A DNA stretch of 64,000 nucleotides from Candidatus Collierbacteria bacterium UBA2277 (GCA_002347045.1 DDWV01000001.1:33553-97552); one strand, 5' to 3'; positions 5 through 55,143 are shown, numbered from the stretch's first letter. Translations and numbers: made by a program. Notes: generated by a model from the letters alone, not told the origin.

Positions 5-3000
5 TTGGTTGGTAAGGAGCTTTTGAAGTTGTCGCTTGAAATTGAAAATGAGAATAGTGGTTCTGTGTTGGCTGCAACTTCAGACACCCCCATTGAAGCT
101 ACGTCAAACACGATAATTGGACAAGCGGTGGGTTCGTCTTTTTTCCAAGTTAGAAAAAATATTGAGGACGGCTCTATTGAGGTGTTGTCTGCTGGTTTAC
201 CAGTTGTAAGTTTGGTGCCTGGACCATCTGGTCCACAAGGAATACAAGGACCTCCTGGTCCGGCAGGTGGACCAAAAGGAGATAAAGGAGATAAAGGAGA
301 TAAAGGTGACACTGGTGATACAGGTCCAGCCGGAGCGACTGGGGCGACGGGGCCAGCTGGGAGCAGTGTGGCTGGTGTTGATACACTAAATCTATTATCC
401 GGGGCGCTAAGTGTTGCTGGAGAAGGAATTAACACCATTACTACTAATGGAATTGATACCATTACAGTTACAGGAACTCTGCCAAGTCTTGATCCGACTT
501 ACTTTACAACAGCCAATATTTCTCAGTGGACAAATAATTCGGGATACATTACTTCCTCCGGTACGTCAACGAACTTTTCCGGTTCGCTAACTGGTGACGT
601 TTCGGGCACACAAACAACCACTTCGGTAGAAAAAATTAGAGGGGTGACTTTAGGCTTAACAACAGCAACATCGGGTAACTTGTTGATTGCCAATGGACTT
701 ACTTGGGCTACTCAAGCAATGACTGGCGAAGCATCCATCAACGGATCGGGTGCTTTTGCAATTAATTACGCTGCAGCACAGTCAGCCGATGCGACACATA
801 AAGGATTCCTGACTGCCGCTGATTGGATTTTGTTTAATGGCAAGCAAAACGCTTTAGGGTTTACACCAGAAAATGTGGCGAATAAATCAACCAGTACTGC
901 TTTGGGTACATCGGACACTTTATATCCATCGCAAAATGCAGTAAAAACCTATATCGACAACAACGCCCTTGGTCTAAATTGGAAAACGAGCCTTGACGCA
1001 GTAAACGTGATTGCCGAGACGGCAAGCCCTAGTCTTTCTACAGTTGAAGGAGATGCATATATTATTAATACTGGGGGGAATACCGGTATTTGGTCGACCT
1101 TTTTACCCGGTGACTTGGTGCAGTATCAGAATGGTGGTTGGATAAAGCTGGAATCTTTGACTGTGGGTGATCGAGTTGGTGTGTCCTTCACTTCATCTAC
1201 TTCGGCTACGGGAACCTTTACAGGTTATGACGATAATGTAATTGAAATTTCAGGCGGTGTCCCCGGTGCTTTTACATATAATTTCATTTCTCCTGCCAAT
1301 GGCGATGCTAGGTATGTTGATGATCCACAATCTATATATTATGGAATCTCCTTTACTTATTCCGGATCACTATCTGCATGGGTTCAACTATCGTCAAGTG
1401 TTAATGCTTCTTACGGAAGTGGTTTGCAAAGTGTTTCAAATGTTATTTCTCTAGGGAATTTGACAGAGGATTGGAATCAGACCGGAGTATTTAATATAAA
1501 TACAGCCGGAAACATCTCGACAACCGGAACGGGAACAATAACTTCAGCAGGACTTTTGACGGCATCCAATGGACTAATGGTGACAGGTCTGGCGATAAAT
1601 TCCGCAGTCTATACAGATGGCACCAGCAGTCTTACTACTACTGCTCCTACAGCTGGAGTCCTCGGATACTGGAGTAGAACCGGAACAGTATTATCACCGG
1701 CTACTGCAGGTGATGGAATGACTACGGCCGGAACAACAAACATTGGATCCGGAACAGGAGTTGTAACAATAAACTCCTCGGGATCATTGAACTTAACCGC
1801 AGCTTCAGCATCGACTTTTTCTTTGGCAAATGTAGCAAATGCTCTAAATTTTGATACTGATACTTTAACAATTGACGCTTTGAATAATCGGGTGGGTGTT
1901 GGTACAGGAGCGCCTTTGTCGAGCTTACAAATTAACGGTTCTTTGGGAACAAAAGTTACCACTGTGACTAGTAATTTAACGTTGACGGATCAACACTCAA
2001 CAATTGAGGGTAATCCAGCCGTTTCACTTGTGATTAGGCCGCCGCAGGCATCGACAGCGACAGGAAGGATATACCAAATTAAAAATATTAGTGCCACAGG
2101 TAGTATTACAGTAGATCCATACGTAGCTGAGTTGATTGATGGGCAGTCTACTTATACTTTTAGTGGTCAGTTTAACTCAATTATCATTCAGAGTAATGGA
2201 ACTGGCTGGAATATTTTGTCTGATAAATTATTTGAGGCCAATCAAAATTTAAGAACCACAGATTCGGTTTCATTTGCCGGTATTACCGGTACAGGACTGG
2301 CAATCAACTCCGCAGTCTACACAAATGGTTTTAGTGACTTAACCACAACAGCACCTACTTCAGGAGTACTGGGATACTGGAATAGAACGGGAAACACTCT
2401 TTCTCCTAGTACTTTAGGGGACGCAGTTACGACTTCAGGAAATATATTTTCAACCGGAACAGGAACCATTACTTCTGCCGGACTTCTAACTGCCAGTAAT
2501 GGTCTCACCCAAACAACAGGTGCTACTAATATCACCGGAACATCTGGCGCCTTAACATTGTCTGGACTGGGTGCTTCATCTATATCTACAACTGCAAACG
2601 GATTAACGCTATCTACTGTGACTTCTGGAACTCTAGCACTTACTTCTGCAGGAGCACTAAACATGTCTGCAGGAGCTGCTTCGACGTTTACTTTGGCGAA
2701 TGTAGCTAATGCTTTGAATTTTGATGCCAATACTTTATCAATTGATGCATTGAATAACAGAGTAGGAATAGGGACGACGACTCCTTCGTATACATTATCA
2801 GTATTGGATACTGTTAATTCCGGGGGGGTGACTTCTATATCAAATTTATCTACTACAAATAACGCCGCAGCCTACACAGTGTTGCGATTAAATATGGGAA
2901 CACCAACAGGGACAAATGTTTCTAGGTTTATTAAGTTTTTCGCCGGTTCAACAACGGATGACAATGGAATTGGAGTTGGTAACATAAGACTTAATAATGC

Positions 3001-6000
3001 CGGGGTAACCTATGCATCGGGGAATGCTGATCTGGCTGAGTGGACTGAGGTCTCCGGAGGCCCGGTGGCCGGAGATATTATTGCAGCAAAGGCGTCAGGT
3101 AATACAAAAGCAGTGACTGGGGACTTGATTTTGGGAGTGGTGACCGACACCGCGGCATTTATTGGAAATGAGACGGGAGACCTTACAGGAAAAGAAATCG
3201 TTGGAATGCTTGGCAGGGTTAGTACAAAAGTATCCAATGAAAATGGAGATATCGCTATAGGGGACCCGATTGCTCCAAGCTCTGTAGCCGGAGTGGGTAT
3301 GAAACAGACGAAAGCTGGGCCAACGATCGGAAAAGCGTTGGCGGCAAAAACAGGCGCTACTGTGGAGAGAGTTGAAGTTCAGGTGGTACCGGGATGGTAT
3401 GATCCTGATCCACTGTTGTCGCCGGCTGCCTTTACTGTGAGCGGGACAGATATTTTACAAAGTGGTGAGGTTGTGACTCGAGCAGGCGGATTCCAAGATT
3501 TAAAGATTAAAGACATTACCGTGGCCAACTCGCTAACGTTACCAAACGGTTCAATCTTAAATGCAAATTTGGCTAATTCGAGTTTAACAGTAACAGCAGG
3601 AACAGGATTGTCAGGAGGTGGTTTGGTGTCTCTTGGAGGAACAACTTCATTATCTTTACCTGGTGTGGGAATTGCAGGAACTTATGGAAGTGCATTATCA
3701 ATTCCAGTTTTAACTACTGATGTACAAGGAAGAGTGACTGGAGTTACGGCGACGACTATTTCAGGAATAACAAATTCTCATTTATCTGGGACTGCCGGAA
3801 TTACCGATGCAAACTTGGCAACGATTACAACGGCCAGTAAAGTATCCGGGTCGGCAGTTCAGTTGAATGCAAATGGAGGAATTACAAACAATACCGGATT
3901 ATCACTTTTAACTTCTTGTGCAAGTGGTGAGGTTTTGAAATGGAATGGATCTGCTTGGGCATGTGCCATTGACAACTCAGGGGGGTCACCATCCTTTGAT
4001 TTAATTGCTTCAGGAACTAATACGACTGCCACAATGACTGTAGGTACAGGAGGAACGCTCACTTTCTCAGGAAGTGGTGTAGTGAATGCCTCCACCCTTG
4101 GAGGTGCCACTTTTGCAGCTCCCGGCAGTATCGGCTCAACAACACCAGGCACCGGGGCGTTTACGACACTCTCTGCCAGCTCAACTCTGACTGCATCAAA
4201 TGGATTGACGATGACGACGGGTGCTTTGAGTCTGACTTCTACGTCAGGAGCGATCTCGTCCACCGGATTAACTGGACTGACACAAACATTATCGTCCGGA
4301 ACTGCGGCTATTACCGCGCCAACACTTAACTTAAATGCGTCTTCTACAGGAAATACTGTCATTGGAAACGGAACAGGAACGTTTGCTTTGGCATCAAGTG
4401 GAGGATTGAACGTAACAACCGGTGGTGCACTGACAGGAGTGGCTTCGATCGACACCATAGGGGTAACGGCAACCGGACTTACATTCGCGGGAGCAGGAAC
4501 AATCGTAACAAGCACAACATCAGCGTTGACTTTGGATTCGGGAACGACCGGAGCTGTAAATATTGGAACAGGGGCGAATGCTAAGACAGTGACTCTGGGA
4601 ACAACAAATACTACTTCAACTACAAATATCCAGTCCGGAACAGGAAATATAAACTTTACGGTTGGACCTACTTCTTCTTCCGGAAAGGTACAAATAGGGA
4701 ATAGTGGAACAGCGACACCTGATTTATTGGTGCTGGACAATGGTACTGCCGATCCTACCGGCGTAAACGGGGCGACATATTACAACACGTCGACAAATAA
4801 ATTTAGATGCTTTGAAAATAGCACCTGGAAAGATTGCGATACGACGGGTTCGGGGGGACCGGCAAAGAGTGCAGCAATTGTCGACAGTACCAGTGATACA
4901 TTGACAGGAACTGAGGCTGAGCTGCTGGATGGAACAGCCCCGGCAATCACCCCGTCGTCTACAAGTAATAGAATTTTAATTAATGGTTCGATAAGAGTAA
5001 GGACTACGGTTCGAACTCAACAGACGAATACTTTTAGAATAAGGAGAGGATCGGGTAGTTGCGCTGGTACTCAAGTTGATGGAGATTTGATACTTATAAC
5101 TAAGGAAAGCCATGCAGCGGGCGTCCCCTTTGATAGTTATGTGAGCTTTAGTTTGATTGATGCGCCATCTACCACCTCTTCACAAGCATATACCGTCTGT
5201 GGTTTGTTCTCAGGCGGAACTGCAAATACCACACCATATATCTCAATGACAATAATTGAAGTGGCGGCGACAGGCGCCGACTTGGCTGAGATTTACTCGA
5301 GTAATGATGAAACATTGGCTCCGGGAGATGTGGTGAGTCTTGATTCTTCATTGGAAGCCGGAGTAAAAAAGAGCAGTGTGGCCTACGACAAACAAGTTCT
5401 CGGAATTGTATCTACTAATCCTGGAATGACGATTGGTAGTATCGGTGAAGGGGACACTAAAGCTGTGCCGGTAGCTCTTTCTGGTAGGGTGCCGGTGAGA
5501 GTATCGACAGAAAATGGAGCGATTATGGCAGGTGATTACCTGACTACTTCATCAACTCCGGGTGTCGCCATGAAAGCAACTAAAGCGGGATCAATTATCG
5601 GAACAGCAATGTCAGCATTTGATGGTGACTATGTCGGACAAGTACTGGTATTTGTCAAGAGTGGCAATAGCACTGGTGTAAGTTTGGTGGAGGTTATGAA
5701 GGGACTCGATTTGACAAGTGTTTCGTATAACTCCGATGTGCTATATAACTTGATATTAAATAAAGAGCAGGTAGCGACAGGCTCAACCAATACTTCAGAA
5801 ATAATGACGGATAGGGTAGTGGCCGGGTTGGAAATTATTACTCCGAGAGTCACGACTCAAGACTTACTGGTAAGTGAGAACGCGACCTTCTCGGGAATCC
5901 TGTATGCAGATACGATTAAGGCCAGAAGAATTGAGGGAGTAGATATTCTGACCAAGAAACTGAGTCTACTTACTGATCAGGTGGCCGGGGTCGCCACGGC

Positions 6001-6550
6001 TGCGGGTGAGATACAAAGTAGCACTGCGAGTGAGATTGATATATTTGCGATAATTGCCAATAAGATTGCCGAGATATTCAGAAACACGGTGGAGTTTATC
6101 GGAAAAGTTATCTTCCGAAACGAGGTGGAGTTTGCTGGGAGACCGATTTTTAACAAAGATACTGCCGGGTTTGCCACAATAATGGCAGGTGGAAACGAGG
6201 TGGAGATTCTCTTTGATAAAGAATACAAAGACGAACCTATCGTTACCGCCACGGCACAGATTGCTGGAGGTGTGTCGATTGCCGATATTCCCGGATACGC
6301 GATTGCCGATGTTAATACCAAAGGCTTTAAGATTCGTATGAGTAGAAAGATTGGCATGGACCTGCGGTTTGCCTGGGTGGCGTTGGCTGTCTCGGAGACG
6401 ACGAAGTTTGAGGGAAGTGGGGAAGAAATTGTATCTCCTGTTACCTCTGTAACGCTAGAAACTTTTCCTGATACTTCTTTGACTCCAACCCCGACACCTT
6501 TAGTGGAGGTGACACCTTCAGAAACGGCTAGCGAAAGTGGAAATTTGTAA
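5..6550 (+). CDS. Giant secreted/surface protein, 5'-truncated by window edge (>2181 aa); collagen-like Gly-X-Y tract, Thr/Ser/Gly-rich tail-fibre-like repeats, large internal duplications
   Basis: Single uninterrupted ORF from window start. ~16 Gly-X-Y triplets at nt ~218-360 (GPSGPQGIQGPPGPAGGPKGDKGDKGDKGDTGDTGPAGATGATGPAG). Two ~110-aa near-identical modules (GLAINSAVYT...LANVANALNFD..IDALNNRVG) at nt ~1580-1910 and ~2300-2780. Two further paralogous ~90-aa modules near nt ~3120-3390 and ~5390-5660. Confidence 0.8.
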   Translation: MVGKELLKLSLEIENENSGSVLAATSDTPIEATSNTIIGQAVGSSFFQVRKNIEDGSIEVLSAGLPVVSLVPGPSGPQGIQGPPGPAGGPKGDKGDKGDKGDTGDTGPAGATGATGPAGSSVAGVDTLNLLSGALSVAGEGINTITTNGIDTITVTGTLPSLDPTYFTTANISQWTNNSGYITSSGTSTNFSGSLTGDVSGTQTTTSVEKIRGVTLGLTTATSGNLLIANGLTWATQAMTGEASINGSGAFAINYAAAQSADATHKGFLTAADWILFNGKQNALGFTPENVANKSTSTALGTSDTLYPSQNAVKTYIDNNALGLNWKTSLDAVNVIAETASPSLSTVEGDAYIINTGGNTGIWSTFLPGDLVQYQNGGWIKLESLTVGDRVGVSFTSSTSATGTFTGYDDNVIEISGGVPGAFTYNFISPANGDARYVDDPQSIYYGISFTYSGSLSAWVQLSSSVNASYGSGLQSVSNVISLGNLTEDWNQTGVFNINTAGNISTTGTGTITSAGLLTASNGLMVTGLAINSAVYTDGTSSLTTTAPTAGVLGYWSRTGTVLSPATAGDGMTTAGTTNIGSGTGVVTINSSGSLNLTAASASTFSLANVANALNFDTDTLTIDALNNRVGVGTGAPLSSLQINGSLGTKVTTVTSNLTLTDQHSTIEGNPAVSLVIRPPQASTATGRIYQIKNISATGSITVDPYVAELIDGQSTYTFSGQFNSIIIQSNGTGWNILSDKLFEANQNLRTTDSVSFAGITGTGLAINSAVYTNGFSDLTTTAPTSGVLGYWNRTGNTLSPSTLGDAVTTSGNIFSTGTGTITSAGLLTASNGLTQTTGATNITGTSGALTLSGLGASSISTTANGLTLSTVTSGTLALTSAGALNMSAGAASTFTLANVANALNFDANTLSIDALNNRVGIGTTTPSYTLSVLDTVNSGGVTSISNLSTTNNAAAYTVLRLNMGTPTGTNVSRFIKFFAGSTTDDNGIGVGNIRLNNAGVTYASGNADLAEWTEVSGGPVAGDIIAAKASGNTKAVTGDLILGVVTDTAAFIGNETGDLTGKEIVGMLGRVSTKVSNENGDIAIGDPIAPSSVAGVGMKQTKAGPTIGKALAAKTGATVERVEVQVVPGWYDPDPLLSPAAFTVSGTDILQSGEVVTRAGGFQDLKIKDITVANSLTLPNGSILNANLANSSLTVTAGTGLSGGGLVSLGGTTSLSLPGVGIAGTYGSALSIPVLTTDVQGRVTGVTATTISGITNSHLSGTAGITDANLATITTASKVSGSAVQLNANGGITNNTGLSLLTSCASGEVLKWNGSAWACAIDNSGGSPSFDLIASGTNTTATMTVGTGGTLTFSGSGVVNASTLGGATFAAPGSIGSTTPGTGAFTTLSASSTLTASNGLTMTTGALSLTSTSGAISSTGLTGLTQTLSSGTAAITAPTLNLNASSTGNTVIGNGTGTFALASSGGLNVTTGGALTGVASIDTIGVTATGLTFAGAGTIVTSTTSALTLDSGTTGAVNIGTGANAKTVTLGTTNTTSTTNIQSGTGNINFTVGPTSSSGKVQIGNSGTATPDLLVLDNGTADPTGVNGATYYNTSTNKFRCFENSTWKDCDTTGSGGPAKSAAIVDSTSDTLTGTEAELLDGTAPAITPSSTSNRILINGSIRVRTTVRTQQTNTFRIRRGSGSCAGTQVDGDLILITKESHAAGVPFDSYVSFSLIDAPSTTSSQAYTVCGLFSGGTANTTPYISMTIIEVAATGADLAEIYSSNDETLAPGDVVSLDSSLEAGVKKSSVAYDKQVLGIVSTNPGMTIGSIGEGDTKAVPVALSGRVPVRVSTENGAIMAGDYLTTSSTPGVAMKATKAGSIIGTAMSAFDGDYVGQVLVFVKSGNSTGVSLVEVMKGLDLTSVSYNSDVLYNLILNKEQVATGSTNTSEIMTDRVVAGLEIITPRVTTQDLLVSENATFSGILYADTIKARRIEGVDILTKKLSLLTDQVAGVATAAGEIQSSTASEIDIFAIIANKIAEIFRNTVEFIGKVIFRNEVEFAGRPIFNKDTAGFATIMAGGNEVEILFDKEYKDEPIVTATAQIAGGVSIADIPGYAIADVNTKGFKIRMSRKIGMDLRFAWVALAVSETTKFEGSGEEIVSPVTSVTLETFPDTSLTPTPTPLVEVTPSETASESGNL

Positions 6551-28455: not shown

Positions 28456-29349
28456 ATGCCAGTAAATAATTTAGCTCATGATAAGAGTTTTCCATATGTG
28501 ACACCCGATGTGTTCGAAACTGATAGTGGAGTGAGGTTTTTGCAATCACCGGGGGTTGCGGTGATCAGCGTACCCGACGTTTGTCTTGAAGGAGTAGGGC
28601 AGTTTTTGAGTGGTTTTCCTGATGATCTTGGTTTTTCTGATTACCTTTTGGATCCCACTGTATTGTCGTCTTCTGAGTCTTTGTGTAAGTTTGCAGGGCA
28701 GCTTTGCTATTTATCTTTTGGTCCACAGAGAACTTACAACGAGAACGCTGATAAGTATTTTAAAAATATTAAAATGTCGAGTCATGGTTCTGTTTTGGAA
28801 CACGCGAATATTTCCATGCTTTGGTGGGGTATTAGTAGGACCTTGACACATGAACTAGTTCGTCACAGAGCAGGATACGGATTTTCCCAAGTGTCACAGA
28901 GATATGTAGGCGGGAAGACCATTCGCTTTGTAGAGAGAGTCGAGTTTCAAGATAATGATCTTCTACATCAATGGTTTCTGAGGAGAATTGAGAGGTCATA
29001 TCGGGAGTATATTGAGTTAACAGAGTACTTGGTTTCTCTCCAAAAAGAAGGGGAGAGTTCACTCTCGGCTGAGCGAAAAACTGACCTTCGAAAAAAAGTA
29101 CGCCAAGCATCACGAGCACTATTACCCAATGAAACTGAAGCTCCGATTTTGGTAACGGCAAATGTACGAGCATGGAGACATTTTTTGAATATGCGAGTGA
29201 GTGAGCATGCTGAGGTAGAGATTCGAAGAGTAGGTTACGAAGCGTATCGATGTTTGTATTCCTTGACTCCTTTGCTGTTTGATGATTTTGAAGTGGTTGA
29301 CCTTATTGATGGAACTAAGGGATTGAAAACTGAGTATCCAAAAGTGTAG
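28456..29349 (+). CDS. thyX: Flavin-dependent thymidylate synthase ThyX
   Basis: ThyX signature RHRAGYGFSQVSQRY (RHRxxxxxxSxRY); 297 aa. Confidence 0.85.
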   Translation: MPVNNLAHDKSFPYVTPDVFETDSGVRFLQSPGVAVISVPDVCLEGVGQFLSGFPDDLGFSDYLLDPTVLSSSESLCKFAGQLCYLSFGPQRTYNENADKYFKNIKMSSHGSVLEHANISMLWWGISRTLTHELVRHRAGYGFSQVSQRYVGGKTIRFVERVEFQDNDLLHQWFLRRIERSYREYIELTEYLVSLQKEGESSLSAERKTDLRKKVRQASRALLPNETEAPILVTANVRAWRHFLNMRVSEHAEVEIRRVGYEAYRCLYSLTPLLFDDFEVVDLIDGTKGLKTEYPKV

Positions 29350-29367
29350 GTTTAAGACCCCATAAGA

Positions 29368-29396
29368 TTGACTTAAGGTATATTTTCTCGTAAAAT
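29368..29396 (+). promoter_or_regulatory. Sigma70-like promoter TTGACT-N17-TAAAAT (duplicate of the 27772 module)
   Basis: GACCCCATAAGATTGACTTAAGGT block; -35 at 29368-29373, -10 at 29391-29396. Confidence 0.5.
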
Positions 29397-29438
29397 ACGT
29401 TTATTGTTGCTCATTCAAATATATGTGAGGAGGAAAGA

Positions 29439-29972
29439 ATGTATCGAGTTGAAAGAAAATTAGGAAATACCGATTTTAGGTCGGTTTTAAGAGCTTTACC
29501 AAAAGGCTGGATTATTGAGGCAGTCGGGTATATCAACTTGTTTCAAATATCCAACGAGACAACTTATGTTGGAGTAGGATTTGTGAAGATATTAGACGAG
29601 AAGACAATTTCTATCTTGGTTGACGAAACCGAACCTGATGGTAAGTTGTTTTGGCAGGCTTTTGCCAGGAAGTATCCTGAACAAAATCCATTTGATATTC
29701 GATATGCCCTGCTTTATCAGGTCGGTGGTGAGGGGGAGCTTTATGAGATTGATAAGTACCCAAGTCATTCGATTGGAGACCCTTTTAGTCAGGCTATCCA
29801 TTACAAAAATGTTACAGCATTTGTCGTTTCATTTTTGTTTGGGGACTGGGTTCCTGGGAGGTCTGTTGAGGTAATTGCCTATCAGGAGATTCTGAAAAAT
29901 GGTGATCTTGGGCCAGAACAGCCAGCAAGAGTTTTCCGGCTTGCGGGTATCGAAAACGAAAATACAATGTAG
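29439..29972 (+). CDS. Hypothetical protein, paralog 2 of the pair flanking thyX
   Basis: 177 aa; same motif set as 27844..28362. Terminator GCTCCGGCT-TTCA-GCCGGAGC-TTTTTT follows. Confidence 0.55.
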   Translation: MYRVERKLGNTDFRSVLRALPKGWIIEAVGYINLFQISNETTYVGVGFVKILDEKTISILVDETEPDGKLFWQAFARKYPEQNPFDIRYALLYQVGGEGELYEIDKYPSHSIGDPFSQAIHYKNVTAFVVSFLFGDWVPGRSVEVIAYQEILKNGDLGPEQPARVFRLAGIENENTM

Positions 29973-30091
29973 TCTATTTTGCTCCGGCTTTCAGCCGGAG
30001 CTTTTTTATAAGTGTTTAAAGAAGTATCACTACAATAGACTCTTGTAGTTTTAGGTATTGTCAGAAGCAATTTTTTGATTTATCTTAGGTA

Positions 30092-30295
30092 ATGACAGAA
30101 AAATTTGAAAGCGACTTTCACAAAAGGTATGTTGGTGGTCAAGGTGACGTGGAAGAAAAAGAGACGTTTGTGTTTCCTGCAAAAAATGTTGAGAAAATTC
30201 CATATGATGAGATTTTGGCCGAGTATCGAAAATATGTGGGAGACTCAGATGCAGAATTACCCGGTGAGTTGTTATTGTTTAGCATGTTTAGCTAG
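30092..30295 (+). CDS. Small acidic hypothetical protein
   Basis: 67-aa ORF; its stop abuts the tmk start (TAGATGG). Confidence 0.3.
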   Translation: MTEKFESDFHKRYVGGQGDVEEKETFVFPAKNVEKIPYDEILAEYRKYVGDSDAELPGELLLFSMFS

Positions 30296-30925
30296 ATGGT
30301 AGAAAAAAGAAAACCATTTGTTGTGGCTGAGGGTGGAAGTGGTGCTGGGAAAACAACAGCAATTGAAGGAATCAAGAAGGAATTGTCTGACTGGAAGTTT
30401 TTTAGAGAGCCTGGTGGCTCAGAGTTTGGAGAAGCGATGAGGGAAGCTGTCCAACAACATAAGGATTGGGAGATTGACCCCCTGGCCTCAGTATTGGCTT
30501 ACAGCGCTTCAAGGGCAAATTTGATTAATACACAAGTTGTTCCTGTGCTTGAAGGTTATGTTCCTGCCAATGGTGTGTTTTTGGATAGGTATTGGTTTTC
30601 AACGTATGCCTATCAGGGTGGTGGAGAGGGTGTCGATAGGGAAATAATATTGGCAGTAAGTAAGATGGCTACAAGGGGGCTGTTGCCGGACCTAGTACTG
30701 CATTATGATTTGGTTCCGGAGCTTGCTGTGGCTCGAAAATCTAAATGTAGTGATATAGACAGGTATGACATGAAAGAGTTGGAGTTTCATCGCAAGGCTA
30801 GAGATGGGTATTTGGAGTTGTCGGTGATGTTTCCTGATTTTTGGAGAGTAATTGATTCATCACAGAGTAAAGAAAAAGTTTTGCTCGATTCATTGATGAC
30901 ATTGAGAGAGTTTGGTATGGTTTAA
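30296..30925 (+). CDS. tmk: Thymidylate kinase-like (dTMP kinase)
   Basis: P-loop VAEGGSGAGKTT followed by FREPGG; length ~209 aa; position next to thyX. Confidence 0.65.
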   Translation: MVEKRKPFVVAEGGSGAGKTTAIEGIKKELSDWKFFREPGGSEFGEAMREAVQQHKDWEIDPLASVLAYSASRANLINTQVVPVLEGYVPANGVFLDRYWFSTYAYQGGGEGVDREIILAVSKMATRGLLPDLVLHYDLVPELAVARKSKCSDIDRYDMKELEFHRKARDGYLELSVMFPDFWRVIDSSQSKEKVLLDSLMTLREFGMV

Positions 30926-31118
30926 GATTTTTAAATGCCTTTTGACTTGCCTATAGGCTAGGTATACCAATACATAGCGTTAGATAATTGGTCTCTTTAC
31001 AATCAAAAGAGGAGAGCTTTGTATATGAAAGTTGAAGATTGTGCACCTTGTAATTCCAGGGGCTTTTTTGTACCTTGAGGTATAAAAAACCGCCCCATAT
31101 AGGGGCGGTGTTGGTTGG

Positions 31119-32162
31119 TTACTGAAGTGGTTCAATCAGCTTGATCGATGAGCCTGACAGTGTCAGGTTCCATTCACTTCCGTTCTTGTACATTGGGAAC
31201 TCTGTAGTGCAGTCCGGAAAATATGAGTAAATTCGCTTATCCGTAAGAAACTCCGTTTTGCAATGAATTTCTTGATTACCGCTTTGTCTCAGGGTTTCAG
31301 TTTCTGTTACGGCAGGACAAACAATATTATTGTCAACCCCTGTTGACTCCAGAGGATTAATTGAAACCCATTCCCAAATGTTGTACTTGTACATGGTTTG
31401 GTAATTGGGTACAGGGAGGAAAATTTTCTCGTCCTCGCAATGTTCAACCCAGTCCCAATCATCAATAGGTACTATGTCTGTCGTTGGAACGCATGTCGTT
31501 ACATCTTTGTAATTATCGATGACATCGCAAGTTCCGTCATCGTAACAGAACGTATTTGTATCAACGTACACTGACTCTGTATTGCAATCCTCACCCTTTA
31601 CAATCTCGTTATGTGACCCGACCACTTCCCAATTTTTATCGCAGATAGTATCTGTACGTAAGTAGACTTGGTCATAGTGATGAATTTCTTGACTTTCAGA
31701 AATATAATCACCATCTGGAGGAATACTCCAGTCACTGTGAAGATTGTATTGGTACTCAGACATGGGTACCTTACACGACCAACTGCTGGCAGATACCCTT
31801 CCTACCATTTCGCGAGGGGAGAAGATCCATATTAGTCCAAACACTATTACCAGTAGCGCCAGTGAGGCTCCCACGATACCAACCCAGTTTAAGCTTTTGG
31901 TTTTTGGACCGTAGCCTGGGAGGTAATAATCTCGTGAATCTTGTGTTTGATAAGATGGCCTGGAAGCGAAGCTTTCTTTTGTGGTGGTTTCTGCACTGTT
32001 TTTCAGGACGGTTTCTGATCCACAACTTGAACAAATCAAATCGTTTGTTTCGATTGAACAGTTCAAACACAATCGATTTGTTTTCCCGACATTTTGATGG
32101 CCCCACCACAGTTGGGGCATATCTTGGACTTGGGTGCGATTTTTGCATTGCAAAAAGGGCAC
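31119..32162 (-). CDS. C-terminal (frame-shifted) part of a multi-zinc-ribbon membrane protein: third Zn ribbon, TM helix, Cys-rich extracytoplasmic domain
   Basis: This frame begins with GTG and has no obvious RBS. CLNCS...CSSCGSE ribbon, TM (WVGIVGASLALLVIVFGLIWIF), then 15+ Cys in the ectodomain. Continuous with 32063..32452 after a -1 shift at 32081-32087. Confidence 0.55.
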   Translation of the reverse strand: MPFLQCKNRTQVQDMPQLWWGHQNVGKTNRLCLNCSIETNDLICSSCGSETVLKNSAETTTKESFASRPSYQTQDSRDYYLPGYGPKTKSLNWVGIVGASLALLVIVFGLIWIFSPREMVGRVSASSWSCKVPMSEYQYNLHSDWSIPPDGDYISESQEIHHYDQVYLRTDTICDKNWEVVGSHNEIVKGEDCNTESVYVDTNTFCYDDGTCDVIDNYKDVTTCVPTTDIVPIDDWDWVEHCEDEKIFLPVPNYQTMYKYNIWEWVSINPLESTGVDNNIVCPAVTETETLRQSGNQEIHCKTEFLTDKRIYSYFPDCTTEFPMYKNGSEWNLTLSGSSIKLIEPLQ

Positions 32163-32452
32163 TCTTCATCGGATCCGTGATCCAAATCAACCCCACGTGC
32201 TTTCATGTCCTTTTCAGTGAGAAATGGTCGGCTGTCGGCTGGTGTGACGTAGGTTTCTGTGGAGTCCTTTGGATTTCCACACATTGGGCAAAGTTTAGTA
32301 CTGCCATTTATGTGGTCATGACCACAACTATTGCATGTCCAGTCGGCATCAACTGTACCGACATAGACTGTTCGTGTGCCCGCTGGCTTTGTCATCCCAG
32401 CTTTTTTTGGATTCACGGACTTAGTACTCGATACGAGCTTTCTTTCTGCCAC
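32063..32452 (-). CDS. N-terminal part: tandem C4 zinc-ribbon protein (129 aa) ending just after a -1 slippery site
   Basis: Cys pairs CNSCGH/CPMCGN and CPFCNA/CPNCGG form two Zn ribbons. The stop lies 16 nt after heptamer G_GGA_AAA. Confidence 0.6.
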   Translation of the reverse strand: MAERKLVSSTKSVNPKKAGMTKPAGTRTVYVGTVDADWTCNSCGHDHINGSTKLCPMCGNPKDSTETYVTPADSRPFLTEKDMKARGVDLDHGSDEECPFCNAKIAPKSKICPNCGGAIKMSGKQIDCV

Positions 32453-32591
32453 GGTAACTCCTTTATTGTTTTCTAGGTGTTAAGGTTCAATTTCGATGGA
32501 TAATGATAGCACATTTAGGCTCAAATGTCAAGGTTATAGGGTGTAAATCACTGTTGATGAATGTTTTCTATAAGTAGGATAAAATTAGTGT

Positions 32592-33806
32592 ATGAAAGAT
32601 ATGATCGGACAGTTAATTGAAAAAGAGTCGAAACGACAGTCTGATACTTTGAGTTTAATCCCATCTGAAAACTATGCCTCTTGTGACGTGCGTGAAGCAA
32701 TAGGCTCTGTATTGGCAAATAAATATGCTGAAGGATATCCAGGAAGAAGGTATTACCAAGGAAACGATGTGGTGGATGAAGTGGAGAACTTGGCTATTGA
32801 GAGAGGTAAAAAGCTTTTTAAACTAGAACACATTAATGTGCAGCCTTACTCTGGAAGCCCAGCTAACTTGGCTGTGTTACTTGCATTGGTGTCTCCAGGA
32901 GACATCATTTGTGGAATGGAACTTTCAGCGGGAGGCCATCTGACGCATGGACACAAAGTTAGTGTTACAGGGAAGTGGTTTCGAAGTGTGCAGTATGGAG
33001 TAGACAGTACAGGAAAAATTGATTATGAGGCTCTGTCTAAGCTAGTAACTACCGAGAAACCAAAAGTAATCATTGCAGGGACTACTGCATATCCATGGAG
33101 TATTAATTGGAAAATGTTTGCTGAGATAGCTGAGAGTGTTGATGCTTATCTTGTAGCTGATATCAGTCATATCGCAGGACTAATTGCAGGTGGTGCAATG
33201 GAAAGTCCTGTTGACTATGTTCATTTGATAACAAGCACGACTCACAAGGCGCTAAGAGGGCCTAGGGGGGCTTTTATAGGGGTGACAAATAATGGACTTG
33301 AGAAAGATGACTCTTTGTCGGGAAAGATTGATAAGGCTGTGTTCCCAGGGTTGCAGGGTGGTCCTCATATGAACGCTATCGCAGGTATGGCGGTCGCTTT
33401 TGAAGAGGCGAGTCAGGTTGAGTTTGGATCGTACTGTGTAAAAGTGTTGAAAAACGCTAAAATTTTGGCTAGTGAGTTGAGTGCTAGGGGGGTGAAGGTG
33501 TTTGGAACTGAGAATCATCTTATGCTTTTGGACGTTGGGCTACAAAAAGGAAAAGAAGTGGCTATAGCTTTAGAAAAGGCGGGAATTGTGGTAAATGCTA
33601 ATACTGTACCGGGTGAAAAGGGCAGTCCAGTGAACCCGTCTGGTATACGGATAGGCACTCCAGCTGTTACGACAAGAGGTATGGGTGAAAATGAGATGAA
33701 AATTGTGGCAGAATTGATTTACAGAGTAATTTCCGGAAACAATCCTGAAGAGGTAAAAATCGATGTTATTAAATTGTGTAGGAAGTTTCCTTGCCTTGAG
33801 ATATAG
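32592..33806 (+). CDS. glyA: Serine hydroxymethyltransferase
   Basis: PLP-site region TTHKALRGPRG, SGSPANLAV, overall SHMT architecture; 404 aa. Confidence 0.9.
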   Translation: MKDMIGQLIEKESKRQSDTLSLIPSENYASCDVREAIGSVLANKYAEGYPGRRYYQGNDVVDEVENLAIERGKKLFKLEHINVQPYSGSPANLAVLLALVSPGDIICGMELSAGGHLTHGHKVSVTGKWFRSVQYGVDSTGKIDYEALSKLVTTEKPKVIIAGTTAYPWSINWKMFAEIAESVDAYLVADISHIAGLIAGGAMESPVDYVHLITSTTHKALRGPRGAFIGVTNNGLEKDDSLSGKIDKAVFPGLQGGPHMNAIAGMAVAFEEASQVEFGSYCVKVLKNAKILASELSARGVKVFGTENHLMLLDVGLQKGKEVAIALEKAGIVVNANTVPGEKGSPVNPSGIRIGTPAVTTRGMGENEMKIVAELIYRVISGNNPEEVKIDVIKLCRKFPCLEI

Positions 33807-34978
33807 TGGTATTTAGATATATGGATAACGAAAAATCGACAAAGAGGGGTTTACCGGCGTCAAGTATTGTGGCAATTGTGTTTTTGGTTTTGATAATGTA
33901 CTTTTTTGTAACAGGTGGGCTGTATAAATTTTACGCAAGTGCCTTGTTTCTTTTTTATTCTTTCACTCAAAATATATGGGTTTCTGTTGTGCTTTTGGGT
34001 GTGTTTCAAACTATTTTATTGGTGCCTTTTCGTATTATTAGATTACTTGATTTCAAAAATATTCGTGATTTTCAGGCAGAAACTTTGGATACAAGAGTAT
34101 CTTTTGAACAAGAGTCTTATCTGAAACGTCAGTTTAGACAAGGAAACTGGACGTTTACTTTTTACATGCTTGATTTTGTGGTTCAACTTTCGACATATAT
34201 GACAATTGGAAGGCTGTTTTTGACTAACTTTTATACTAAAGCCTTGGACCCTAAAGTTTTATTTTCTTTTGTTAAGTATCCAGAGTATCCAATCTTAGAG
34301 AGATTTTTTAAGATCCCATATCCTCATATAACAAAAACAATTGATCTTGGTTTTGAATCTGTTTTATATTTTTGGTTGATAATTATTGTTGTTGAGATAC
34401 TGATTTCAATTTTTATTTCAGCTAGAAATGCCAAAAACACTCGAGAGGGTTCTAGCTCTTCCGATAGAGCAAGGGTTCGCCTTTCTAGTAAATATCTGGT
34501 TTCGTATGGGGTGATAATGATGGTAGTTTCGTATTTTTTGATGCGCAACTTTCCTGTAGGTATAAGACTAAGTATCTTTTCTGGGGATGTTGCTTTTCAG
34601 AATAGTATATTTAATACAGTTACGGCGATAGCTACGTTTATAACCTTGATGTGGTTTGGTGTAAACGATATTATTCGAAAAGGAAAAATTGCCAGAGAGA
34701 TGGGTATTTCTCAGGGTTTGATTGACTCAACTCAGACAAAGATGTTTAAAGAGTCTTTTTCTAGAGCGGTATTAATTGGTTTGGGTGCATATTTTATTAC
34801 CAATCAGATCCCTTGTGCCTTTGAGCTTTCAATATTTACCTTGGAGGTTATTTCTTTGTTTTCACCTCTTACTTTGGATAAATGGATTTTAAAAGCCGCA
34901 CCAAAGAAGGAGGATTTGGTCGTTGATCGAAAGAGTCGGGAGGAGCTTGAGGTACTAGAAAGTTTTCAGGTAAAATAG
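33806..34978 (+). CDS. Polytopic membrane protein, hypothetical
   Basis: 390 aa with >8 hydrophobic helices; no recognisable motif. Confidence 0.5.
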   Translation: MVFRYMDNEKSTKRGLPASSIVAIVFLVLIMYFFVTGGLYKFYASALFLFYSFTQNIWVSVVLLGVFQTILLVPFRIIRLLDFKNIRDFQAETLDTRVSFEQESYLKRQFRQGNWTFTFYMLDFVVQLSTYMTIGRLFLTNFYTKALDPKVLFSFVKYPEYPILERFFKIPYPHITKTIDLGFESVLYFWLIIIVVEILISIFISARNAKNTREGSSSSDRARVRLSSKYLVSYGVIMMVVSYFLMRNFPVGIRLSIFSGDVAFQNSIFNTVTAIATFITLMWFGVNDIIRKGKIAREMGISQGLIDSTQTKMFKESFSRAVLIGLGAYFITNQIPCAFELSIFTLEVISLFSPLTLDKWILKAAPKKEDLVVDRKSREELEVLESFQVK

Positions 34979-34982
34979 AGAG

Positions 34983-35735
34983 ATGAAGACATTTCTAAAT
35001 GGTAAGAAGGAATCAGAAAAAATTGCTATGTTTTTGGAGGAGTCAGAAAGACTTTTGGGGAAAAGCTTAATTATCATTCAGTGCGATGGCCATGTCGAAG
35101 AGAGTATGTATGTCAGATTAAAGAGAGAAATGGGTGAAAGGCTTGGGGTAATGGTAAGTGTTTTGTTTGCAAAAAATATCGATGAGGTTGAGGAGTTTGT
35201 TAGTGACGCCAATGGTGATGATACAGTTGATGGGATATTGGTTCAGTTGCCGATTCTGGGAGCTGACATCGATAAAATAGATCAAATTTTGTGTTCGATT
35301 AATCCAGCTAAGGATATTGACGGATTAAACCCGAAATCTAGGTTCATTCCGGCGGTAGTTAGGGCGGTTGAAAGAGCAATGGAGATTTTTAAAATAAGTA
35401 AAACTGAGAGAGTTGTGGTGGTGGGTTCGTTGGGAGAGGTTGGAAAACGGTTAGTAAAGAGATTGATTTCTTTAGGGTTTGACGTGACGGGTTTTGATAA
35501 GGGAGACAATCTGCATGAGCTGAAGAAGTTTGATGTCGTTATAGGAGCTACTGGAGTCGATGGACTTGTCAAAGGCAACTTTGTGTCAGATGGTGTTACT
35601 GCTATTGACTTGGGTTATCCAAAAGGGGATTTTTCTCCCGAGGCTTTAGAAAAAGCAGAGAAGATTACACCAGTACCAAACGGGGTAGGTCCTTTGACAA
35701 TTGTGTCGTTATTTGAAAGCTTGGCTGAAGTATAG
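34983..35735 (+). CDS. folD: Methylenetetrahydrofolate dehydrogenase/cyclohydrolase FolD-like
   Basis: GILVQLPI, PAKDIDG, VVVVGSLGEVGKRL, TPVPNGVGPLTIV match FolD motifs; follows glyA (one-carbon module). Confidence 0.7.
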   Translation: MKTFLNGKKESEKIAMFLEESERLLGKSLIIIQCDGHVEESMYVRLKREMGERLGVMVSVLFAKNIDEVEEFVSDANGDDTVDGILVQLPILGADIDKIDQILCSINPAKDIDGLNPKSRFIPAVVRAVERAMEIFKISKTERVVVVGSLGEVGKRLVKRLISLGFDVTGFDKGDNLHELKKFDVVIGATGVDGLVKGNFVSDGVTAIDLGYPKGDFSPEALEKAEKITPVPNGVGPLTIVSLFESLAEV

Positions 35736-52772: not shown

Positions 52773-52826
52773 TAAAAGAACCAAAAAAAGGTGAGAAAAA
52801 CAAAGACAACCGAAACAAAACCGTCC

Positions 52827-53108
52827 ATGGGCTCAGTAAATAAATACGAGCTTGTTGTCATTTATCCAGTGTCCGAGAATGAAATCGGTGCAGAAAAGGC
52901 AATTACAGAAAAGTGCAAAAAACGCGCTTTGAAAGTGATTGACATTGATAAGTGGGGAACAAAGACCATGGCTTACGAAATTAAAAAACAGAGTAAGGGA
53001 TACTATCTGAAGCTTAATCTCGAAGGATCTCCATCTAGTGTAAAAGAGTTGGAACGAGACTTGCAGATGGACGATAAAATGTTAAGATTTTTATTGATTA
53101 GGATTTAA
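52827..53108 (+). CDS. rpsF: 30S ribosomal protein S6
   Basis: ORF 52791..; internal ATG at 52827 (MGSVNKYELVVIYPVSE...KWGTKTMAYEIKK) fits the S6 N-terminus. Confidence 0.75.
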   Translation: MGSVNKYELVVIYPVSENEIGAEKAITEKCKKRALKVIDIDKWGTKTMAYEIKKQSKGYYLKLNLEGSPSSVKELERDLQMDDKMLRFLLIRI

Positions 53109-53124
53109 CAAAACAGGAGGTAAT

Positions 53125-53637
53125 ATGAGTACAAGAAGTTTAAACAAAGTAACATTAATTGGTAATTTAACTCGTGACCCTGAGTTGAAATATACTCCTT
53201 CAGGCACTGCAGTTTGTACATTTGGTTTGGCGACAAATCGTGAGTGGACTGACTCAGCGGGTCAGAAACAAGAGGGGGCAGAGTTTCATCGTATTGTGGC
53301 TTGGGGTAAGCTTGGTGAGATTTGTTCTCAACTAATGAGTAAGGGCCGAAAGGTATATGTTGAGGGCCGTTTGCAAACAAGAGCTTGGAAGAGTCAAGAT
53401 GGTGCAGATAGACAAGTAACAGAGATAGTTATAGAAGAGATGATTCTTTTGGATTCACCAAAAGGTGATCGAGATGAAGGATATGAAAGTAGATTTACAT
53501 CGAATGAATCAGGGTCTCCTTTGTCTGATGTATCACCTGCAGAGGAAGTTTTTAATCCTATTGCTGATGTTGATGAAGAACCAAAAAAACCTTCAAAGAA
53601 AAATGAGGTAAATGAAGATGACGAAATACCTTTTTAA
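53125..53637 (+). CDS. ssb: Single-stranded DNA-binding protein
   Basis: OB-fold N-terminus (NKVTLIGNLTRDPELKYTPSG...), acidic tail ending DDEIPF; 170 aa. Confidence 0.85.
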   Translation: MSTRSLNKVTLIGNLTRDPELKYTPSGTAVCTFGLATNREWTDSAGQKQEGAEFHRIVAWGKLGEICSQLMSKGRKVYVEGRLQTRAWKSQDGADRQVTEIVIEEMILLDSPKGDRDEGYESRFTSNESGSPLSDVSPAEEVFNPIADVDEEPKKPSKKNEVNEDDEIPF

Positions 53638-53652
53638 GTAATTAGTACTCCG

Positions 53653-53910
53653 TTGAAAGCGGATTTAATACAAAATAGAATGATCAAAAAAAAGAAAATC
53701 AAAAAATCAAGCAAGCCTTGTCCTTTTTGCGCAAAAAAGAGTGAACCAAATTATATAGATTTGGAGTCATTGGCAATTGGGGTTTCCAACAAAAAGAGAA
53801 TTGTTTCTCGTTGGACAACTGGAGTTTGTGAAAAGCATCAGTTGAGATTGGCTCGGGCAATCAAGCGTGCGAGACATCTTGCTCTTTTGCCAGTAACAGA
53901 CAGAGTTTAA
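53653..53910 (+). CDS. rpsR: 30S ribosomal protein S18
   Basis: CPFCAK...YIDLESL...RLARAIKRARHLALLP matches the S18 family; rpsF-ssb-rpsR order. Confidence 0.75.
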   Translation: MKADLIQNRMIKKKKIKKSSKPCPFCAKKSEPNYIDLESLAIGVSNKKRIVSRWTTGVCEKHQLRLARAIKRARHLALLPVTDRV

Positions 53911-53931
53911 TTAACAATTTTTATTCAGATT

Positions 53932-55143
53932 TTGCCCATGAACCTAAAAAGGATTAGGAGATTACTTGTTGGTATTTTGTTTACGGGGTTTTGTTTTCTG
54001 GGGGGTTATAGGTATGGTGTGTGGCAAACTGAAAAATTTAATAGCTCCAGAGTTAGCCTGAACACCAGTTCGATGAATGAAGTTTTGGAGCGTTTAAAGG
54101 CCAGCTATTTGAAGCCTGAGGATATTGATAACTCTAAGTTGATGTATGGTGCAACTGAGGGAATGACAAATTCACTAGGTGACCCATACACAAATTTCTT
54201 TCCGCCTGTAGATAACACTCGCTCAAAAGAAGATTTATCGGGTGAGTTTGGTGGAGTTGGAATTGAGCTTGGGTATATAGATAAGACGTTGGCTGTGATT
54301 GCTCCAATAAAGGATAGTCCAGCCATGAAAGCAGGAATTAGGGCAGGGGATTTGATACTCAGTATTAAGGATACGGAAAACGGAGTGGACAAAGATACAT
54401 TAGGAATTTCGATTACTGATGCGGTAAATTTAATTCGAGGAAAAAAAGGTAGTACTGTGACACTGAGTATTTTTAGAGAAGGAGATATGGAGTCGAAGGA
54501 TATTGATTTAGTTCGTGACACAATTACTGTTCCGTCTACTAATCTTGAGTGGGTAAATAATGGAAAGGTGGCTCATGTGACTGTGAGTAAGTTTGGAGAA
54601 AAAACTCTACCGGAATGGGAAAAGATAGTTAATGAGATTGTTGCAAAAGGAGCTACCGGTGTGGTGCTTGACCTTAGAAATAACCCAGGTGGATTTCTTC
54701 AAAGAGCTGTAGACTTAGGTAGTGAGTTTATTTCTAACGGTGTGATTGTAAAACAAAGAGATAAAACAAGAACGGAAGTTATGAATGTTGATAGAAGGGG
54801 AAAGTTAATTGGAATGCCTTTGGTTGTCCTTGTAAATCGTGGTTCGGCATCTGCCTCTGAGATTTTGGCCGGTGCGTTGCGAGAGCGAATTGGAACAAAG
54901 TTGGTAGGAGAGAAAAGTTTTGGAAAAGGAACGGTCCAAGAAGCACAGGAGTTGCCAGATGGCTCTGGTTTGCATGTAACTGTAGCTGAGTGGCTTTTAC
55001 CTTCAGGTAAAAATATTCATGGCGATGGATTGGAGCCTGATATTGAGGTAGCCTATGTTTATGATGAAAAAAACCCAAAAGCTGACAGTCAGCTGGATAA
55101 GGCTTTGGAGGTTCTTGGGGGAGTTATTGCTTCTGTAAAATGA
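53932..55143 (+). CDS. ctp: Carboxyl-terminal processing protease (S41) with PDZ domain
   Basis: PDZ region (GDLILSIKDT...), S41 catalytic region VVLVNRGSASASEILAG...; N-terminal TM; 403 aa. Confidence 0.8.
   Translation: MPMNLKRIRRLLVGILFTGFCFLGGYRYGVWQTEKFNSSRVSLNTSSMNEVLERLKASYLKPEDIDNSKLMYGATEGMTNSLGDPYTNFFPPVDNTRSKEDLSGEFGGVGIELGYIDKTLAVIAPIKDSPAMKAGIRAGDLILSIKDTENGVDKDTLGISITDAVNLIRGKKGSTVTLSIFREGDMESKDIDLVRDTITVPSTNLEWVNNGKVAHVTVSKFGEKTLPEWEKIVNEIVAKGATGVVLDLRNNPGGFLQRAVDLGSEFISNGVIVKQRDKTRTEVMNVDRRGKLIGMPLVVLVNRGSASASEILAGALRERIGTKLVGEKSFGKGTVQEAQELPDGSGLHVTVAEWLLPSGKNIHGDGLEPDIEVAYVYDEKNPKADSQLDKALEVLGGVIASVK

Follow-up and report, generated by a model that had tools for sequence, protein, structure and literature searches.

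Does a canonical −1 slippery heptamer with a hairpin behind it, found where one reading frame ends and another continues, mark a programmed frameshift, or does it mark a gene that has been broken? A locus of Candidatus Collierbacteria bacterium UBA2277 raises this question. It lies near the middle of the 64,000-nt stretch of DNA that we analysed (the window). The first-pass annotation of this DNA had proposed programmed frameshifting of the dnaX type at G_GGA_AAA, with a pseudogene or a homopolymer error as the alternatives.

To describe the locus, we read both frames and their flanking signals directly from the sequence. The features of the gene, all on the minus strand, are collected in Table 1. 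Much of the earlier description held. The 129-aa ORF1 does run past an in-register heptamer, although 15 nt rather than 16 separate the heptamer from the stop. The stem UCGAUUG/CAAUCGA is present with its 13-nt loop, its arms lying at 32076-32070 and 32056-32050, and a spacer of 4 nt separates it from the heptamer. The last codons of ORF1 are ATC AAA ATG TCG GGA AAA CAA ATC GAT TGT GTT TGA. Its tail thus consists of nine out-of-frame residues (MSGKQIDCV) followed by TGA at 32065-32063, and the truncated product ends in AIKMSGKQIDCV. In the −1 frame, the same DNA reads ...CAA AAT GTC GGG AAA ACA AAT CGA TTG TGT TTG AAC TGT... and meets no stop before the one at 31121-31119. This 3′ part encodes zinc ribbon 3 (CxxC...CxxC, 32069-32016), a disordered linker, a transmembrane helix (~31886-31821), and an elongated, Cys-rich, all-beta extracytoplasmic domain. 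The open −1 frame with its third ribbon, helix, and ectodomain had been described before and is borne out by direct reading, by homologues, and by a structural model. No further stops or shifts were found in the 3′ part (31119..32093).

Table 1. Features of the interrupted gene, in window coordinates.
Feature	Position	Strand	Location or basis
Promoter-like site: TTGACA, 17-nt spacer, TG-TATCAT (11/12 matches, extended −10)	32503..32531	−	~50 nt 5′ of the start codon
Shine-Dalgarno sequence AAGGAG	32458..32463	−	5 nt 5′ of the GTG start at 32452; read from sequence
ORF1 (129 aa), the gene's 5′ portion, with zinc ribbons 1 and 2 and the out-of-frame tail	32063..32452	−	
Lesion: A4 run in ATCAAAATGTC, against ATCAAAAAT/CGTC (A5) in the nearest orthologues	32092..32095	−	Codon alignments, HMM
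GGGAAAA heptamer in X_XXY_YYZ register (TCG GGA AAA)	32081..32087	−	Read from sequence
Hairpin: 7-bp A/U-rich stem, 13-nt loop containing the ORF1 stop codon, −6.4 kcal/mol	32050..32076	−	
3′ portion, read in the ancestral frame (AAT GTC GGG AAA ACA onward)	31119..32093	−	
Strong intrinsic terminator: 8-bp stem (7 GC pairs), then T-run	31089..31109	−	10 nt 3′ of the stop codon

Judged from these signals, ORF1 and ORF2 with their putative promoter, ribosome-binding site, and terminator have the architecture of a single transcription unit. The downstream frame had been said to lack both an ATG and a ribosome-binding site of its own. The second half of that statement stands, as no Shine-Dalgarno sequence could be read 5′ of any candidate ORF2 start. 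The first half does not, since the −1 frame contains in-frame starts 5′ of the break (ATG 32120 and GTG 32162). Two TTG codons also lie within 10 nt of the ORF1 stop (TTG 32072 and TTG 32066, the latter overlapping the TGA). A G-rich stretch, GGUGGGG, occupies 32107-32101, 13 nt 5′ of the heptamer. A spacing of ~13 nt is that at which upstream Shine-Dalgarno-like stimulators act in dnaX and IS911.

A search with the fused product of both frames returned 15 homologues (34-57% identity). Fourteen of them, 407-448 aa long, are single proteins spanning the whole query; the fifteenth (355 aa) has lost its N-terminus at a contig end and still crosses the junction in one frame. The gene was likewise uninterrupted at 10 of 10 genome loci from species-representative genomes, which belong to Candidatus Collierbacteria, doubtfully labelled CPR MAGs, and Anaerolineae. 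The fused product aligns end to end with these homologues and keeps all 26 invariant residues, and the −1 frame aligns with them to their C-termini. Because the homologues are uninterrupted single ORFs, ORF1 and ORF2 are parts of one gene, as the first-pass annotation had argued. No homologue split like this gene was found among the protein homologues and genome loci searched. The best match (P0001/L001) is also syntenic, being divergent from SHMT-FolD with thymidylate kinase close by. A scan of genome contigs revealed no relative closer than 57% identity, and a metagenome scan gave only relatives at 21-27% identity.

The position of the break within the protein was defined with Pfam. The double zinc ribbon family DZR (PF12773) matched residues 98-145 of the fused product at 29.2 bits, against a gathering threshold of 27.3, and the match contains four CxxC pairs. 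Ribbons 2 and 3 therefore form one DZR match that spans the break, which places the break inside a domain and not between domains. The earlier description, of a split exactly between the second and third ribbons, is corrected to this extent. Ribbon number varies within the family: ribbon 3 is missing from two homologues (P0014 and P0015), and the match to distant members extends over only 76-81% of the query.

In an AlphaFold model built from a 16-sequence alignment (mean pLDDT 82), the three ribbons are followed by a disordered linker, a transmembrane helix at residues 190-211, and the long Cys-rich ectodomain. The ectodomain (residues 214-372, window ~31814-31338) was predicted at pLDDT 90-98, with beta strands of 28-65 residues. 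Searching with the predicted ectodomain gave no significant match in the PDB. Faint resemblance was seen to the stems of beta-pore-forming toxins and to a DUF2500/YhhM-like small barrel. The ectodomain may represent an unusual fold, found in CPR and Chloroflexota.

Codon alignments with the nearest orthologues showed where the frame changes. At the junction, L026 reads ATC AAA AAT GTC GGT AAA ACA, L025 reads ATC AAA AAT GTG GGC AAA ACG, and L003 reads ATC AAA AAC GTC GGC AAA ACC, while the window reads ATC AAA A-T GTC GGG AAA ACA. Three of the four nearest orthologues have an A5 run where the window has A4 (32095-32092), 9 nt 5′ of the heptamer. The protein alignment gave the same picture. Homologues share I-K-[N/D/G]-[V/A]-G-K-T across the junction, whereas frame 0 encodes A-I-K-M-S-G-K-Q and the −1 frame encodes ...H-Q-N-V-G-K-T-N-R. 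The N-V that precedes the heptamer in the −1 frame fits the [N/D/G][V/A] of the 13 homologues that keep this segment; the M-S of frame 0 fits none. As the −1 frame is already family-like two codons 5′ of the heptamer, the frame change is not at the heptamer. Constraint on this segment follows the −1 frame and not frame 0, the reverse of what a programmed frameshift predicts.

The frame change was also placed with an HMM made from the orthologues alone, against which every single-base repair between 32119 and 32064 was scored. Repair anywhere in the A-run gave the peak score (580.0 bits, AIKNVGKT), compared with 574.2 bits for a frame switch at the heptamer (AIKMSGKT). The margin of 5.8 bits corresponds to a ~56-fold difference in likelihood. 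In the ancestral frame, the heptamer is GGG AAA A(CA), encoding the Gly-Lys-Thr that is conserved in the closest orthologues. Only one orthologue has the heptamer sequence, at the intact locus L004, where it is read in frame as GGG AAA ACA. Judged from these alignments, GGGAAAA is in slippery register only through the upstream deletion and is a by-product of conserved Gly-Lys-Thr codons. The homopolymer alternative of the first-pass annotation was thus right about the kind of lesion, an indel in a homopolymer, and wrong about the run, naming GGGAAAA instead of the A-run.

We compared the apparent recoding signal with chance. The window contains 18 copies of GGGAAAA, where 17.6 would be expected. 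The best 46-nt fold 3′ of the heptamer (−11.9 kcal/mol, z = −2.07) ranks in the top 4.3% of all 46-nt windows of the sequence and in the top 6.8% among windows that follow any XXXWWWN motif. A 76-nt fold that includes the heptamer gave z = −0.93. The hairpin is weak and not clearly distinguishable from background; its spacer is 4 nt, where bacterial sites of the dnaX/IS3 type have a stable stimulator ~5-8 nt after the heptamer. When all one-base deletions were simulated in 45 genes of the window, 7.4% met an in-register slippery heptamer before the first stop. Neither the frameshift arrangement nor the slippery site is conserved among the 15 protein homologues and 10 genome loci.

Published measurements give a scale for what such a heptamer might do. 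In E. coli, −1 frameshifting on GGGAAAA was 0.117% without a stimulator and 0.511% with moderate IS911 stimulators, and reached 17% only with the strong IS3 pseudoknot, over a background of ~0.04-0.07% (Sharma et al., PMC4066793). By analogy, spontaneous −1 slippage at the locus would give ~0.1-0.5% full-length protein at most, these being E. coli values from which the CPR ribosome may differ.

The lesion itself was followed through assemblies and records. The window has a perfect counterpart in a Logan assembly of SRR5324103, with 0 mismatches over 9,215 bp, the A4 included; five samples are reported with the contig. A 1,305-bp contig from JGI metagenome 3300002700 likewise matches the window exactly. 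Records of the 129-aa ORF1 come from NCBI/ENA and JGI, where it lies on contigs of 640 and 647 kb. A 333-aa call for ORF2 (from ATG 32120) is found on six contigs, including all four contigs of 0.2-1 Mb that carry the locus. This call exists only when the gene is split. Altogether, either identical DNA or the split-only 333-aa call is present on seven of the seven contigs on record for the locus. The repaired allele, sought as its 444-aa and 425-aa versions, is absent from a collection of 15 billion proteins. With the same split in every contig on record, from several sources, random assembly error is unlikely. We regard the lesion as genuine in this clonal population, as judged from assemblies, which may share data.

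Five other groups of adjacent same-strand ORFs in the window were examined. Seven of their nine ORFs match complete, distinct families (def, L28, HIT, YqeY, S6, and SSB). The other two have no family, no pair shares a family, and no other split gene was found in the five groups.

Taken together, these data favor a plain reading of the locus. Most likely, an ordinary deletion of one base in a short A-run truncates a single gene, and the heptamer is a by-product rather than a programmed signal. The intact gene, with one promoter, one ribosome-binding site, and one terminator, would have encoded a protein of ~444 aa with three cytoplasmic zinc ribbons, a transmembrane helix, and a Cys-rich beta ectodomain. 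Loss of one A (A5 to A4), most likely by replication slippage, would have changed ATC AAA AAT GTC into ATC AAA ATG TC. Ribosomes would then read Met-Ser-Gly-Lys-Gln-Ile-Asp-Cys-Val and stop, releasing a 129-aa two-ribbon fragment, and the membrane and ectodomain part would no longer be translated in phase. From these sequence features, we infer that the allele is a recent loss of function, a pseudogene in the making.

The lesion is isolated and probably recent. It is the only one in 1.3 kb of gene; the invariant residues, promoter, ribosome-binding site, and terminator are all intact, and no further decay (extra stops, indels, or lost conserved residues or signals) was found in the gene. As the gene is otherwise undamaged, the allele is either very recent or tolerated, if not still under selection. 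Its being the only allele seen across assemblies of this population counts against a plain pseudogene. Were ribosomes to slip by −1 at the heptamer, the frame would be regained at the cost of only two changed residues (NV to MS).

This last property is the basis of another reading, in which the deletion has occurred and enough ribosomes slip −1 at the fortuitous G_GGA_AAA to be of use to the cell. The gene would then be a 'pseudo-pseudogene', its full-length membrane protein made in small amounts beside an excess of the new cytoplasmic fragment of 129 aa with two ribbons. Slippage may be helped by GGUGGGG, the weak hairpin, and a CPR ribosome possibly devoid of L9. We consider this reading unlikely. 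In its favor, an in-register heptamer precedes the first stop and has a sequence prone to frameshifting in E. coli, the downstream fold ranks among the top 4-7% of windows, the G-rich stretch stands 13 nt 5′, and the sole allele seen is otherwise pristine. Indel alleles rescued by frameshifting are also a recognised class (PMC5009743). L9, which is described as restraining mRNA slippage (PMC5009743), is absent after the S6-SSB-S18 operon, as seen at its usual operon position within the 64-kb window only. Some Microgenomates genomes, among CPR groups, are reported without L9 (PMC10221324), and a missing L9, which would fit these reports, could make the ribosome more prone to slippage. Against this reading, no pseudoknot or stable stem is apparent; the motif gives 0.1-0.5% in E. 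coli with no or moderate stimulators; no conservation points to selection for the signal; and 7.4% of random deletions would look alike. It is more doubtful still that the gene works as two, with a soluble two-ribbon protein and a one-ribbon membrane protein made separately. Translation of ORF2 would begin at ATG 32120 or by termination-reinitiation at TTG 32072 or TTG 32066. Such in-frame starts do exist, ATG 32120 is the one chosen by public gene callers, the TTG codons are near the ORF1 stop, and the family tolerates a variable number of ribbons. These points are countered by the absence of a Shine-Dalgarno sequence at every candidate start, by a break that cuts a single Pfam domain, and by the lack of any database homologue divided in this way.

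A sequencing or assembly error, with A5 in the true genome and an intact gene, is very unlikely. The lesion does lie in a homopolymer, and the copies are 100% identical, so overlapping read sets are conceivable. Yet runs of 4-5 A are too short to be error-prone on short-read platforms, the same A4 comes from different assemblers and sources (Logan, JGI, and the NCBI/ENA/JGI contigs of 640-647 kb), and the adjacent ORF groups hold no other split genes. The one-off sequencing error that the first-pass annotation had considered is thus contradicted by seven contigs. For an evolved, programmed −1 frameshift, which would make a short cytoplasmic protein with zinc ribbons and, in fixed proportion to it, a full-length membrane fusion, we find the in-register heptamer, the open −1 frame, and the nearby hairpin, and still hold it to be extremely improbable. 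Comparison of orthologues had been named as a check on this reading, and it fails there: every orthologue compared is in frame, and no slippery site is conserved among them. The frame changes 9 nt upstream of the heptamer by the HMM margin given above, the two codons 5′ of the heptamer are conserved in the −1 frame, and the heptamer itself consists of G-K-T codons, with a stimulator that appears weak beside a motif inefficient without a strong one. Least credible of all is a phase-variable (contingency) switch, in which slipped-strand mispairing at the A-run would toggle a surface protein. In its favor, the lesion is in a homopolymer inside the gene for a membrane protein with an exposed domain, but known contingency tracts are usually at least 7 nt, far longer than 4-5, and only one allele is present on the seven contigs. 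Two further candidates were rejected. Under an alternative code with UGA as sense, as in some CPR, frame 0 also meets TAA and TAG, and the homologues follow the −1 frame; for transcriptional slippage at the A-run, A4 is far too short.

A one-base deletion that leaves the heptamer as a by-product has its closest counterpart in young homopolymer-indel pseudogenes. These share the loss of one base in a short A-run, intact orthologues, a stop within 10 codons, and an otherwise undamaged sequence. The locus differs from an ordinary pseudogene in that its shifted frame meets a slippery heptamer before the stop, which has a chance of ~7% in the window's genes. Low-level rescue by slippage at the heptamer is mechanistically possible.

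Among programmed frameshifts, E. coli copA is reportedly a −1 case, yielding CopA(Z), described by Meydan et al. in 2017. The frameshift site of copA likewise falls between the N-terminal metal-binding module and the membrane part of one gene. There, frame 0 is said to encode the full membrane protein and the signal to be conserved, neither of which applies here. Like dnaX tau/gamma, the locus has an X_XXY_YYZ motif that places a Lys codon in the A site, a hairpin 3′ of it, and, 13 nt 5′, a run rich in G; two products of unequal length would follow. In dnaX (A_AAA_AAG, Shine-Dalgarno-like element, and stem-loop), frame 0 yields the full-length protein and the shift the short form; here the roles are reversed. 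The dnaX signal is conserved and its stem strong, in contrast to the unconserved site and weak stem of this gene. The Z base here is A, not the far more efficient G (PMC4066793).

Compensatory frameshifting on indel alleles has been reviewed, with the G-run mutants of herpesvirus thymidine kinase as an example (PMC5009743). As in those HSV TK mutants, the gene has been disabled by an indel, and occasional slippage close by could return a small amount of product. Slippage in the HSV TK mutants occurs in the mutated run itself, whereas the candidate site here is a separate heptamer 9 nt downstream.

The organism and the surroundings of the gene were also considered. The nearest named relatives of the S2 protein encoded in the window, at 73-79% identity, belong to Candidatus Collierbacteria (Microgenomates). 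The locus lies on contigs of ~0.64 Mb, and the organism is a CPR bacterium with a small genome. MAGs with the closest orthologues (L003, L004, and L005) are labelled 'Spirochaetia bacterium' or 'uncultured Pseudomonadales'. The 'Spirochaetia' label (L001/L003) looks wrong, as the S2 (77% identical to that of the window) and the gene order both suggest a Collierbacteria-like CPR organism. The gene (28456-35735 region) sits in a thymidylate/folate neighbourhood with thyX, tmk, glyA/SHMT, and folD, which adjoins rpsB-tsf. At L001, L025, and L026, the orthologue keeps some of these neighbours (S2, FolD, Tmk, and SHMT) in a changed order, and L001 has a ThiF/SAMP2-like pair inserted.

Several other features of the window were recorded. 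Between SHMT and FolD lies a 390-aa multi-pass membrane protein (33806-34978, plus strand), whose GTG start overlaps the SHMT stop; it had no match in Pfam or NCBIfam. An ORF of 2,181 codons is found near the window start (5-6550, plus strand). Farther downstream, rpsF (S6), ssb, and rpsR (S18) at 52791-55143 are followed directly by an S41 C-terminal processing peptidase, and rplI (L9) is absent from its usual place after S18 in this operon.

The break has also left traces in public annotation. On the strand opposite the gene, 31862-32476 (plus strand) holds a 204-codon ORF, and one Logan assembly calls a 180-aa protein there together with a 214-aa fragment of ORF2. The frameshift seems to have prompted the 180-aa call, which has the look of an artefact of annotation. 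In JGI records, the 129-aa fragment carries the name ribosomal protein L37E, and the homologue P0007 that of rRNA maturation protein Nop10; both names appear to be misannotations driven by the zinc ribbons.

For annotation, the public 129-aa and 333-aa 'proteins' are to be merged and flagged as one frameshifted gene. The locus also calls for caution in reading a canonical heptamer and hairpin at a gene break as a recoding signal, given that an in-register heptamer arises by chance after ~7% of one-base deletions in the window's genes. If meaningful rescue in this CPR bacterium proved true, the locus would be a small, instructive example of compensatory recoding and a snapshot of a programmed frameshift site born from an accident.
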